Assembly: GCA_016195385.1 (NCBI GenBank) | Contig: JACPZS010000068.1 | Span: 3,919 to 67,918, forward strand | Length of the DNA stretch: 64,000 bases | Source: Verrucomicrobiota bacterium | GTDB taxonomy: Bacteria > Verrucomicrobiota > Verrucomicrobiia > Limisphaerales > JACPZS01 | Direction: 5' to 3' | Translations under genes and position numbers: made by a program | Notes under the pieces: model-generated | Told to the model about the DNA's origin: nothing | Database searches by the model: none | Seen by the model: the letters and a program-made list of their open reading frames with translations, nothing else | Part shown: one piece after another, positions 36,952-64,000 of the stretch | How the letters are laid out: each line of letters begins with the position of its first letter | Numbering within the stretch: position 1 is the first letter of the stretch

Positions 36952-37055
36952 CTGCACGAAAAACGGACATGAAAAAATTAACCTTTGTTTCGACCATGAC
37001 TTGGCATTTCCGAGCAGCGCATTCCTCGGTAGCACATGTGATTGACGATCCGTTT

Positions 37056-37270
37056 CACAATCCCAACGGGATTGTGTCTTTCAGCCCAGGGTTGCGAGGC
37101 ACGAGCTACCCTGGGTCTTTCGTGCGAGCGTGTTCAACTCCAACGGAGTTGTGGCAGATCCTGCTCGTCGAACCGCAACCCCGTTGGGGTTGTTGGTTTC
37201 CGGCGCAGTTTCCCAAGGTAGCTCGTGCCTCGCAACCTTGGGCTATGTGCCGGAATCCCGTTGGGATTCC
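37056..37270. repeat. 215-bp hierarchical palindrome made of 6 self-complementary sub-hairpins in 3 mirror pairs about 37163/37164
   Basis: hp1 37056-37076 CACAATCCCAACGGGATTGTG. A 37085-37115 CCCAGGGTTGCGAGGCACGAGCTACCCTGGG. hpM 37135-37151 CAACTCCAACGGAGTTG. hp2 37176-37192 CAACCCCGTTGGGGTTG. A' 37212-37242 CCCAAGGTAGCTCGTGCCTCGCAACCTTGGG. hp3 37252-37270 GGAATCCCGTTGGGATTCC. The centres lie at +/-20.5, +/-63.5 and +/-97.5 nt from the dyad. Confidence 0.8.
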
Positions 37271-37324
37271 AGTCTGGAATTCCCGAAAAGCATTAGCGCC
37301 AGCCAAACAACAGTCCATTTGCGC

Positions 37325-45445: not shown

Positions 45446-45522
<77 letters not shown>

Positions 45523-62049: not shown

Positions 62050-62998
62050 TCAAGGTTTTGACTCCGCGTGATTCGCGCAAGCGCAGTCCAGGCTCGGCGA
62101 GAATTTTGCCGATGCAACTGAGCCGCAATTCGGGGAATTTTTTTTTCCACGCGTCGAGCAACGCCACCGCGTCGCTGCTGGCGACGGTGAACAGGAGTTC
62201 AAAATCCTCGCCGTCCGTCAGCGCGGCGAGCAACGGCGGCTTGACGCTCGCCGGGGTGGTCTCGCCGGGCGCGCCCGGTTTGCGCGCCGAGCGGCTGATC
62301 GGGATCGCGCGCGCGAGCAATTCCGCGCCGACATGGCTCGCGCGAAGGATGTGCCGCAGGTCGCCGGCCAACCCGTCGCTGATGTCCATCAATGCGTGAA
62401 TGGCGAAATGCTCGGCGAGCCAGCGCGCTTCACGCAGACGCGGCTCGAATTCAAGGTGCCGGCGGGCGAGCGAGCCACCGAGTTCACCGGTGACAAAAAT
62501 GGCGTCGCCTGACTTCGCGCCAGAACGGCGCGGGCATTTGGTTTTTTCAACGGTGCCAATCACGGAAACCGAGATGAGCAAACGATCCGGATTCGTCGTC
62601 GTTTCGCCGCCAACGATGGCGACGGCGTGACGTTCGGCGAGCGGTTTCATCCCGCGATAAATCGCCTTGATGAAACCGGGATCAAATTCGCGGGGAAGTC
62701 CGAGCGTGATGAGCGCGGCGACGGGTGTGCCGGCCATCGCGGCGATGTCGCTCAAACAACGCGCCAGCGCCTTGTGGCCGATTTTTTCCGGCGGCGTGCT
62801 AGTCGTGAAATGGACGCCTTCCACGACGGCATCGGTTTTGAAAAGCACCCACCGGTCGGGCAGGCCGAGTTCCAGCACGGCGCAATCGTCGCCCGCGCCC
62901 GCGATGACCTGGGCATTGGACGGCAGGTCGGCGGTTAGCGAACGAATCAAGGCAAACTCATCCATGACATCAACTAGGGAATGCCGGCGCTCGTTCAT
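62015..62998 (-). CDS. thiL: Thiamine-monophosphate kinase
   Basis: DEFALIRSL...GDDCAVL...VVEGVHF...SVSVIGTV; AIR-synthase-related fold. Confidence 0.85.
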   Translation of the reverse strand: MNERRHSLVDVMDEFALIRSLTADLPSNAQVIAGAGDDCAVLELGLPDRWVLFKTDAVVEGVHFTTSTPPEKIGHKALARCLSDIAAMAGTPVAALITLGLPREFDPGFIKAIYRGMKPLAERHAVAIVGGETTTNPDRLLISVSVIGTVEKTKCPRRSGAKSGDAIFVTGELGGSLARRHLEFEPRLREARWLAEHFAIHALMDISDGLAGDLRHILRASHVGAELLARAIPISRSARKPGAPGETTPASVKPPLLAALTDGEDFELLFTVASSDAVALLDAWKKKFPELRLSCIGKILAEPGLRLRESRGVKTLNAEGYIHFKQP

Positions 62999-63701
62999 GC
63001 AAAAGCCAAAAGAAATTGACCGCGTTGAACAAGCTGTGCGTCAGAATCGGGACCAGCAGCGTGCCGGTTTTTTCGTAGAGCCAGGTCAGCAACAGCGCGA
63101 GCATGACCAGCGACGCGAACACCTGCAGATTCTGGTGCATCGTGGCAAAGAAAATGGACGGTCCCCACCACGCAAAGCGCCGGAAGCCCCATTGCTTCAA
63201 CATCGGATAAGCCAGGCCGCGAAAGAGAAGTTCCTCGCCTACCGGCGCGACCACGATGGCGGCGCTGCCGAAAATAATTTTTTGTGGAATTGAAACGGTG
63301 GCTCTCAAAGTCTGCACGGGCAGTTGTTCCGCCGCCGCGACGTTAAGCCAGGAAAGAATTTGCGCCGACGCCTCCCCCAGCAGCCAGGCGAGCGGCAGGA
63401 CGACGGCCGTCGCCAGCGCCGCGAATCCGAGCACGTGCCAACCCGGCGACTGCGAGATGCCGAATGCCTCCGACCAGTTCGTGCGATTGATGCGCAAAAA
63501 CGCGGCCACAAAAAATAAATTGGCGCAGTGAAAAGCCAGCGTGGTGGCGGAAAATATCAGCGCGCCCGGTTTGATCGATCCGTCGGCGTGGCTGAATTTG
63601 AAAATCAGACTGGCCACGAGCATGACGAACAGATAGTTCGTCATGATGGTGAGCATCAGGAGCATTGCTGACTCCGTTCGCCAGTTTTTGTCGGACAACA
63701 T
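62970..63701 (-). CDS. CPBP-family intramembrane glutamic endopeptidase (CAAX protease-like)
   Basis: EELLFRG motif, FATMH and HSLFN motifs, multiple TM helices. Confidence 0.85.
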   Translation of the reverse strand: MLSDKNWRTESAMLLMLTIMTNYLFVMLVASLIFKFSHADGSIKPGALIFSATTLAFHCANLFFVAAFLRINRTNWSEAFGISQSPGWHVLGFAALATAVVLPLAWLLGEASAQILSWLNVAAAEQLPVQTLRATVSIPQKIIFGSAAIVVAPVGEELLFRGLAYPMLKQWGFRRFAWWGPSIFFATMHQNLQVFASLVMLALLLTWLYEKTGTLLVPILTHSLFNAVNFFWLLHERAPAFPS

Positions 63702-63801
63702 GATGAAAAGTTAATACAGCGCCCGTCAAGGTGACGATGGAAAAAGAAAACCTGACGGCGAAACCAGCGCATCTCCGTTTCTTTCAATCGATCCATCCGC
63801 T

Positions 63802-63944
63802 CTCATTAGCACCCAGCTTCAGCTGGGTGACTTGGGTCGCAAGCCAGGCGAACCGCTTGAGCGGTTTTGTGGCCGGGAAACCGCTCAAGCGGTTCCATTC
63901 CGTTTCGTACCAAGCCCACCCAGCTAAAGCTGGGTGCTAATGAG
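63802..63944. repeat. 143-bp hierarchical palindrome with the same build as the one at 37056-37270
   Basis: Outer arms 63802-63829 CTCATTAGCACCCAGCTTCAGCTGGGTG and 63917-63944 CACCCAGCTAAAGCTGGGTGCTAATGAG. Each is itself a hairpin, and they are reverse-complements of each other but for one loop base. Inner arms 63850-63867 GAACCGCTTGAGCGGTTT and 63878-63895 AAACCGCTCAAGCGGTTC. Dyad at about 63873. Confidence 0.75.
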
Positions 63945-64000
63945 AAGTCGGATTTCAACCTGCAAGAAACTGAGATGCGCCCCAGCGAAACCAGCGGAGC

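Follow-up and report, generated by a model that had tools for sequence, protein, structure and literature searches.

Bacterial miniature inverted-repeat transposable elements (MITEs) are non-autonomous derivatives of DDE insertion sequences (IS); the Correia elements (CREE) of Neisseria and Nezha of cyanobacteria are examples. The present work compares with them an intergenic dyad found in a Verrucomicrobiota bacterium, near the end of a stretch of 64,000 nucleotides (assembly GCA_016195385.1, contig JACPZS010000068.1, positions 3,919 to 67,918), called the window in what follows. An earlier note on this DNA had described a 143-bp palindrome of palindromes at 63802-63944, upstream of a gene for a CPBP protease, and had seen in it and in a second palindrome at 37056-37270 a recurrent class of structural element. 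In our analysis, the dyad would rather be the interior of a 218-bp MITE (63765-63982) with ends of the ISKra4 type, inserted upstream of the CPBP promoter. We give this reading a probability of about 0.8.

The element resembles bacterial MITEs in its size, in being non-coding and intergenic, in its terminal repeats shared with an IS, in its target-site duplication of fixed length and in its fold as a long hairpin. It differs from the known ones by its interior, which is unrelated to the IS: four hairpins form a modular array, and this array is also found without terminal repeats. No description of MITEs for the ISKra4 family was found in the literature.

Two other groups of elements have to be considered. 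The IS of the ISKra4 group, as well as TnGBS and ISLre2 elements, insert close to promoters, at a fixed distance upstream of sigma-A promoters, with a junction distance of 13-17 bp in the case of ISKra4-group elements (PMC3942029). Repetitive extragenic palindromic (REP) sequences form head-to-head (HH) dimers, which in some cases lie within longer palindromes, and a GTAG or CGTC tetranucleotide defines their superfamilies (PMC3733652).

Terminal repeats and target-site duplication

The dyad core spans 63801-63945, and its symmetry extends past the limits assigned to it before, as a further 20-nt inverted pair is found at 63767-63786 / 63961-63980. This pair belongs to two 22-nt terminal inverted repeats. 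The right one (63961-63982, minus strand) is the reverse complement of the consensus GGGCGCATCTCAGTTTCTTGCA, matched at 22/22 positions. The left one (63765-63786, plus strand), CAGCGCATCTCCGTTTCTTTCA, is degenerate and matches the consensus at 18/22 positions. Under the null, the best match in 90 nt averages 10.8/22 and the probability of reaching at least 15 is 0.005. Directly outside the terminal repeats, a 9-bp target-site duplication is observed, with CGGCGAAAC at 63756-63764 on the left and CAGCGAAAC at 63983-63991 on the right, the latter ending 9 nt before the end of the window. The two copies agree at 8/9 positions; for one fixed pair of positions, chance alone would give an agreement this good or better with a probability of about 1e-4. 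A left linker (ATCGATCCATCCGC, 63787-63800), to which similar linkers exist in loci L053 and L021, and a right linker (AGTCGGATTTCAACC, 63946-63960) separate the core from the terminal repeats. Hence, 143 bp cannot be kept as the full extent of the structure: the unit measures 218 bp, with terminal repeats and a flanking 9-bp direct repeat. Only two open reading frames (ORFs), of 50 and 69 amino acids, cross it. A 12-nt direct repeat, GCGAAACCAGCG, was also tried as the duplication, and was superseded by the 9-bp one once the repeat ends had been set from clean copies.

The right terminal repeat is identical to the left end of a full-length IS at L168 417-1883, whose right end shows one difference. 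Moreover, L053 and L021 belong to the same MITE family as the window copy (73-78% identity over about 220 nt). The composite of repeats, linkers and core is present twice in one metagenome-assembled genome (MAG), at L021 and L053, with different duplications, and also in the metagenome contigs L107, L111, and L161; this indicates that the composite moves as a unit. More generally, several copies are found elsewhere (L021/L053; L039/L063/L065; many contigs of one metagenome). The window itself contains one clear MITE copy and a possible decayed relative at 37015-37301.

When the terminal repeat is read outwards, a TTGCAA stands exactly 17 nt from the element end in many loci (for instance L091 562-583). 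It is a -35-like hexamer positioned to pair with a -10 hexamer in the flanking DNA. At the left end of the window element (63782-63787), TTGAAA replaces this outward TTGCAA, and the flank offers GTTTCG, a poor -10. A sigma-54 promoter reading of the TTGCA of the terminal repeat was discarded on inspection, the spacing of the GG being unfit.

Parent insertion sequences

A conserved motif, GGGCGCATCTCAnTTTCTTGCA, is found in inverted orientation 1-50 nt outside the core in the window and in L053, L021, L033, L043, L039, L063, and L065. Scanning metagenomes for the terminal-repeat motif gave at least 120 loci, and pairing of the repeats defined at least 71 bounded elements; all counts of bounded elements given here are counts among the matches listed. 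Sixty-one of these are short (118-582 bp), with about 30 unrelated interiors among them. Directly flanking 9-bp duplications match at 8/9 positions or better in 34 of the 69 scorable elements, and perfectly in 25 of them. The ten remaining elements, of 1467-1500 bp, have the size of a full-length IS. Both of their ends carry the 22-mer, with two mismatches or fewer in each, and no mismatch is seen at either end in L166, L173, and L193.

The identity of the transposase was tested in one of these ten long elements, L168, which comes from a metagenome contig and not from the source genome. There, an ORF of 471 amino acids fills the element and matches the NCBIfam model NF033572 (ISKra4 family transposase) with 215.4 bits, for a cut-off of 205 (E = 1.4e-63). 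Distant homologues of this transposase on plasmids are annotated ISKra4, with at most 29% identity. In the family of the window element, the ends start with GGG and the direct repeats have 9 bp, as listed in ISfinder for the ISKra4 group.

Several side observations concern this superfamily. Many terminal-repeat matches face outwards and stand at about 100 nt from contig ends (L083-L202; for instance L084 74-95 and L096 76-97), and in L119 and L156 such matches occur at both contig ends, which suggests that the terminal repeat commonly breaks metagenome assemblies. At L043 5349-5460, a further terminal-repeat-like fragment, GCGCATCTCGACCC, is located just past the right duplication, suggesting tandem or nested insertions. 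At L162 2517-2978 (minus strand), an ORF resembling TnpA of IS200/IS605 is located 1.2 kb from an ISKra4-type MITE (phmmer E = 2e-18, the query being an IS608 TnpA sequence); it is not beside any core copy. Finally, viral contigs lack the outer hairpin motif and just three of them have the terminal repeat, so that there is no evidence for spread by phages.

Insertion site and the CPBP locus

Site preference was evaluated on the 68 flanks of the 34 elements with good duplications. A TTG is present at offset 27 from the repeat end in 15/68 flanks, as compared with 1.27 +/- 1.27 at other offsets. It never occurs on both sides of the same element and is often followed, 17 nt later, by a TAnnnT-like hexamer. 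Thus, like the IS of the ISKra4 group and TnGBS/ISLre2 (PMC3942029), the superfamily combines a transposase of the ISKra4 model, carried by its full-length relatives, with a one-sided, -35-like TTG located at a fixed distance downstream of the insertion. Unlike those IS, the window contains only a defective derivative, devoid of transposase, the distance is not the published one (see below), and the transposases of plasmid ISKra4 elements are only remote relatives.

On the left of the element, the CPBP (Rce1-like) intramembrane protease gene (62970-63701, minus strand) is a neighbour and not a part of it. Its ORF of 243 amino acids is 100% identical to P0001 (PF02517). A -35-like hexamer of its putative promoter, TCGTCA (63732-63737, minus strand), starts 27 nt from the end of the left terminal repeat. 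It is found 15 nt upstream of a TATAAT-like hexamer, inside a block, TTTTCCATCGTCAC, that the orthologous loci L079, L080, and L082 share without any change. The -10-like hexamer, TATTAA (63711-63716, minus strand), aligns with TATAAT in L079 and with TATTAT in L082. From the sequence comparison, it is suggestive that TCGTCA would be the -35 element and that the block would act as a promoter, in which case the window copy would match the preferred site of the family. The presence of the element upstream of the CPBP gene would then be due to the fixed-distance promoter targeting of the family.

The conserved region as a whole reads TTTTCCATCGTCAC, 13 nt, GTATWAW (window 63702-63750, minus strand; L079 4480-4541; L080; L082). 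The -10-like hexamer is just 9-11 nt before the ATG of the CPBP gene, a spacing that suggests a leaderless or near-leaderless CPBP mRNA.

The three orthologous loci share 76% CPBP protein identity and the same thiL-tsaE-tsaB synteny. In all of them, the element is absent upstream of CPBP. A solo terminal repeat was searched for in L079, where the best match is 12/22, that is to say background. With terminal repeats, a duplication and the ends of an ISKra4-family IS, and with its absence from the orthologous CPBP loci, the structure is that of a MITE, and a new class of structural intergenic element is not supported.

Structure and dispersal of the core

As for the dyad itself, the earlier description is accurate. 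The structure is there, at 63801-63945, with each of its units at the position reported. The outer arms (63801-63829 and 63917-63945) have 29 nt each and are 97% complementary, their single mismatch being a loop base, and each contains a perfect hairpin CACCCAGCT-nn-AGCTGGGTG (63810-63829 in the left arm, 63917-63936 in the right one). Complementarity is perfect between the two 18-nt inner arms, GAACCGCTTGAGCGGTTT and AAACCGCTCAAGCGGTTC, each of which is itself a hairpin AACCGCT-nn-AGCGGTT. The mirror symmetry has its centre at about 63873. This structure is beyond chance: the 20-nt outer unit occurs 2 times for 0.01 expected from shuffles of the 64-kb window, and the folding energy of the region is -138 kcal/mol, for -79 +/- 5 in shuffles (z = -11.4).

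All parts of the core are given on the plus strand. A left tag (TCTCATTAG, 63801-63809) pairs with the right tag (CTAATGAGA, 63937-63945) to form a closing stem, P0. Hairpin H1 (CACCCAGC-TTCA-GCTGGGTG, 63810-63829) has a variable stem position, which is A-T, G-C or T-A in relatives. Two further hairpins are H2 (AACCGC-TTGA-GCGGTT, 63851-63866) and H2' (AACCGC-TCAA-GCGGTT, 63879-63894). H1' (CACCCAGC-TAAA-GCTGGGTG, 63917-63936) is a 20-nt hairpin like H1 and inverted with respect to it, at a distance of 87 nt.

A search with BLAST and an nhmmer profile yielded 20 other full-length relatives of the core of about 150 nt, plus several partial ones, in MAGs labelled Verrucomicrobiota, Acidobacteriota gp4/Pyrinomonadaceae, and Bifidobacterium. 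Scanning one genome per species for the outer hairpin gave 78 loci, and several MAGs have copies on different contigs, up to five loci per MAG being counted by the exact 18-nt motif only. The bins labelled Bifidobacterium or Bifidobacteriaceae that carry the core are those of L021, L053, L042, L058, and L074, two of which also carry the ISKra4-type MITE; their label is probably a binning error.

The window copy and the 20 others were aligned (21 sequences, alignment A2). The common layout starts with a tag TCTCATTAR and H1; a linker (about 22 nt) leads to H2, a spacer (about 12 nt) to H2', and a second linker (about 22 nt) to H1', after which comes a tag YTAATGAGA. When four local hairpins and a closing tag stem are assumed, 97.4% of the cells are paired and 14 pairs have changed on both sides, a covariation score reached by 0/500 shuffles. 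With one long hairpin, double changes are found in six pairs only. Within H2, alignment columns 68/73 form a U-A pair in 11 copies and a C-G pair in 10. Long-range pairing between H1 and H1' is broken at the variable stem position in 11/21 copies, whereas the local pair of H1' (columns 157/167) persists in 20/20 (AU 14, GC 4, GU 1, UA 1). Since local pairs are kept while the long pairing of the outer arms is broken, the conserved units are the small hairpins. The tags also covary, as TTAG/CTAA, TTAA/TTAA or TTCA/TGAA, both tag pairs being standard in 21/21 copies. The appearance of a palindrome of palindromes is due to the symmetric placement of small hairpins. The symmetric arrangement seen in the earlier note is thus retained, but its hierarchical design gives way to four independent hairpins closed by a 9-bp stem. 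Similarly, the notion of a recurrent family holds insofar as the core occurs at unrelated intergenic loci of several genomes with covarying hairpins, and is not supported insofar as a new structural class was meant.

No gene recurs beside the copies, according to an all-against-all BLAST of the ORFs around 30 of them; a neighbour apparently shared by L012 and L033 was set aside, an identity of 32% only not making the two orthologues. At gathering score, Rfam gives nothing relevant, the sole match in the window being a tRNA gene (45446-45519, plus strand, 68 bits). At E <= 10, the best match in 63700-64000 has E = 0.33 and 19 bits, for a gathering score of 79. The attC site of integrons is an imperfect palindrome with core sites RYYYAAC ... 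GTTRRRY at its ends. Such an identity was rejected for the core, all copies of which end in TCTCATT ... AATGAGA, with no integrase or cassette context seen beside them.

Two cores, at L065 5642-5971 and L044 2530-2835, have their halves separated by about 150 nt of unrelated sequence and may contain nested insertions. In addition, a 25-nt stretch identical to the tag and H1 (ATTAGCACCCAGCTTCAGCTGGGTG) occurs in loci of Bacteroidota MAGs (L028 1890-1975, L031 3173-3258, L070 1880-1949, L041 6921-7044). In these half-units, the tag and H1 are associated with a different second hairpin, GCCCGCTTCAGCGGGC, followed by TTTTTT in L041.

A model for the window element and its limits

The following scenario may be proposed. 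The two 22-nt terminal repeats would be recognised by an ISKra4-family transposase, a Mutator-like DDE enzyme that a full-length IS would provide in trans. Insertion by a staggered 9-bp cut would create the flanking duplication, at the distance that the family prefers upstream of a -35 element, here that of the CPBP gene. The empty site before insertion would have been ...GACGGCGAAACCAGCGG..., with the 9-mer present once. In this scheme, the four hairpins would be a passenger for the ISKra4-type transposase, a separate module akin to a REP doublet and carried by the MITE. Later decay would account for four changes in the left repeat, including the two terminal bases, and for one change in the duplication. 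Transposition would thus have taken place in this lineage, and the window copy is probably no longer mobile.

Several observations weigh against this model. Neither the left repeat nor the duplication is perfect. Over the 64 kb of the source genome that the window covers, no full-length IS and no second clear copy are seen. The distance measured here is 27 nt when counted from the repeat end and 18 nt when counted from the outer edge of the duplication, as against 13-17 bp for ISKra4-group elements in PMC3942029, and the hexamer at offset 27 in the window is TCGTCA and does not contain TTG. Furthermore, the model leaves two features of the core unexplained. Among the 21 aligned copies, 13 have neither a terminal repeat above background nor a duplication. 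The majority-base frequency reaches 0.92 in the stem and tag columns and 0.44 in the linkers. As ISKra4 transposition should need the terminal repeats only, the conservation and covariation of the hairpins are not accounted for.

These features lead to another view of the core, which is compatible with the MITE as an outer layer and competes with the model only over the nature of the 143-bp dyad. The four-hairpin core would be the primary element, a REP doublet of the REPIN kind, spreading thanks to an enzyme of its own, which would work on single-stranded hairpins as do RAYT (REP-associated tyrosine transposase) or IS200/IS605 HUH transposases; the ISKra4 MITE would merely house the core or have captured it. 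In favour of this view, the 13 copies devoid of terminal repeats end sharply at YTCTCATT...AATGAGAR. In an Acidobacteria MAG (AA26), most pairs of copies share a unit that stops where the core does; L013 and L027 share about 40 nt more, on one side. The hairpins are maintained by compensatory changes while the linkers drift, and the linkers between terminal repeat and core vary among MITE subfamilies. The layout itself, with a tag and a hairpin placed head-to-head around a structured spacer, is that of a REP HH dimer (PMC3733652).

The likeness to REP HH dimers, REPINs, and bacterial interspersed mosaic elements (BIMEs) is therefore notable in layout: tagged 20-nt hairpins are inverted with their tags outside (PMC3116915, PMC3733652), the spacer contains two stem-loops, the units are extragenic, naked copies lack a duplication, and stems show compensatory changes. 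Other properties speak against this view. The tag is TTAG, TTAA or TTCA, with CTCATTAG, CTCATTAA or CTCATTCA in 21/21 copies, and the GTAG or CGTC of the known REP superfamilies is absent. No RAYT or IS200-type gene was detected by phmmer within about 4 kb of any core copy, a weak search with IS608 TnpA and E. coli RAYT sequences as queries, whose sole match, in L162, is unrelated to any core copy, and no gene recurs beside the copies. The apparent copy number is low, with at most five loci per MAG by exact-motif matches. No empty MITE backbone without the core was found. For the naked copies, no duplication or target motif was found beyond the 10-nt inverted ends. Unlike REPs, which are inherited within one lineage, the core is spread over MAGs labelled Verrucomicrobiota, Acidobacteriota, and Bifidobacterium (the latter probably misbinned), with half-units in Bacteroidota. 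The core thus resembles a REP doublet in the way it would work, without being filed as one, and an origin as a REPIN-like primary element is a tentative idea that we regard as rather doubtful.

A related proposal, which we also hold to be possible but on the unlikely side, is that the 145-nt core would be a distinct module, similar to a REP doublet but without GTAG or CGTC, and moved or used by a separate partner protein. Selection would act on its hairpins across MAGs labelled Verrucomicrobiota or Acidobacteriota gp4 and, in the form of half-units, in Bacteroidota. According to the same proposal, this core and unrelated arrays, such as that of 37056-37270, would repeatedly enter promoter-targeting ISKra4 MITEs.

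The second palindrome of the window

The palindrome at 37056-37270 shares with the dyad at 63801-63945 matches of 8-10 nt only, in agreement with the earlier statement that the two have no sequence in common. It is 75-90% similar to the interiors of L104 2522-2849 and L190 5646-5952, two elements bounded by ISKra4-type repeats and duplications as in the 218-bp MITE family. Its own flanks match the terminal repeat at 10/22 (37015-37036) and 12/22 (37280-37301) positions, at the expected distance, and no duplication is visible. It would be either a decayed MITE copy or a naked module.

Symmetric hairpin arrays are also observed in other MITEs with the same repeats (L172 7785-8130, L199 4895-5240, and L118 4844-5190; L099 6946-7220 and L181 3807-4081; L149 974-1270). 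They consist, for example, of four CCACCGAC-TTTAT-GTCGGTGG units or of CCCTCTCCC...GGGAGAGGG pairs, and their interiors are unrelated to the core of the window. The two commonest interiors of the superfamily are not symmetric hairpin arrays. Hairpin arrays are a common cargo of this MITE superfamily, and it is in this limited sense that the idea of two instances of one recurrent design within the window is right: as the interiors of L104 and L190 indicate, the two palindromes are related in kind.

Terminator and regulatory readings

The hairpins could also have been selected by the host, either as a bidirectional intrinsic terminator or as an mRNA-stabilising structure at gene ends. Indeed, H2 and H2' have G+C-rich stems with short runs of T or A next to them (GCGGTTTTGT, GGGAAACCGC), a terminator-like match is found at 63850-63895, and TTTTTT follows the second hairpin in one Bacteroidota half-unit (L041). 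However, this single weak match equals the expectation from shuffled sequences (1.0 +/- 1.2), the T runs have 3-4 nt only and are paired with the preceding A runs, and the window copy is located upstream of the CPBP start and not at the 3' end of a gene. Over 22 copies, the neighbouring genes are divergent in roughly 5 cases, convergent in 4, and in tandem in 8, a near-random distribution based on crude gene calls. With no enrichment of the family at gene 3' ends, the weak bidirectional terminator suggested earlier finds no support here, and a host-selected function of this kind appears highly improbable.

The least credible of the readings is a cis-regulatory feature of CPBP, such as an operator array for a dimeric protein, a structured 5' leader or a small RNA: the dyad is about 100 nt upstream of the CPBP start and each hairpin is a perfect double-stranded palindrome of the type bound by dimeric regulators, but the dyad is missing from the orthologous CPBP loci, the same core stands beside unrelated genes elsewhere, the conserved promoter-like block between element and gene makes co-transcription with CPBP improbable, Rfam offers no match (the best one, with E = 0.33, being far below its gathering score), and strand pairing accounts better than recognition of two half-sites for the compensatory changes seen inside individual hairpins.

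Significance

What appeared to be a new class of structured intergenic element receives a concrete annotation, as a probable MITE of the ISKra4 family. It yields rules for finding further copies, which rest on the 22-nt repeat GGGCGCATCTCAGTTTCTTGCA together with a 9-bp duplication. ISKra4-type elements are abundant in environmental metagenomes, where they often stand within about 100 nt of contig ends. Because of their fixed distance to promoters, such MITEs can affect how neighbouring genes are expressed and mislead gene calling in MAGs. Beyond the annotation, the conservation across phyla of a small hairpin module with compensatory changes is a modest but real point. If the core were a distinct module with a partner protein of its own, and if it and unrelated arrays did repeatedly enter ISKra4 MITEs, this would suggest a functional link between hairpin modules and this transposon family; for instance, it may be imagined that the hairpins help to join the two ends of the element or serve as preferred landing sites.

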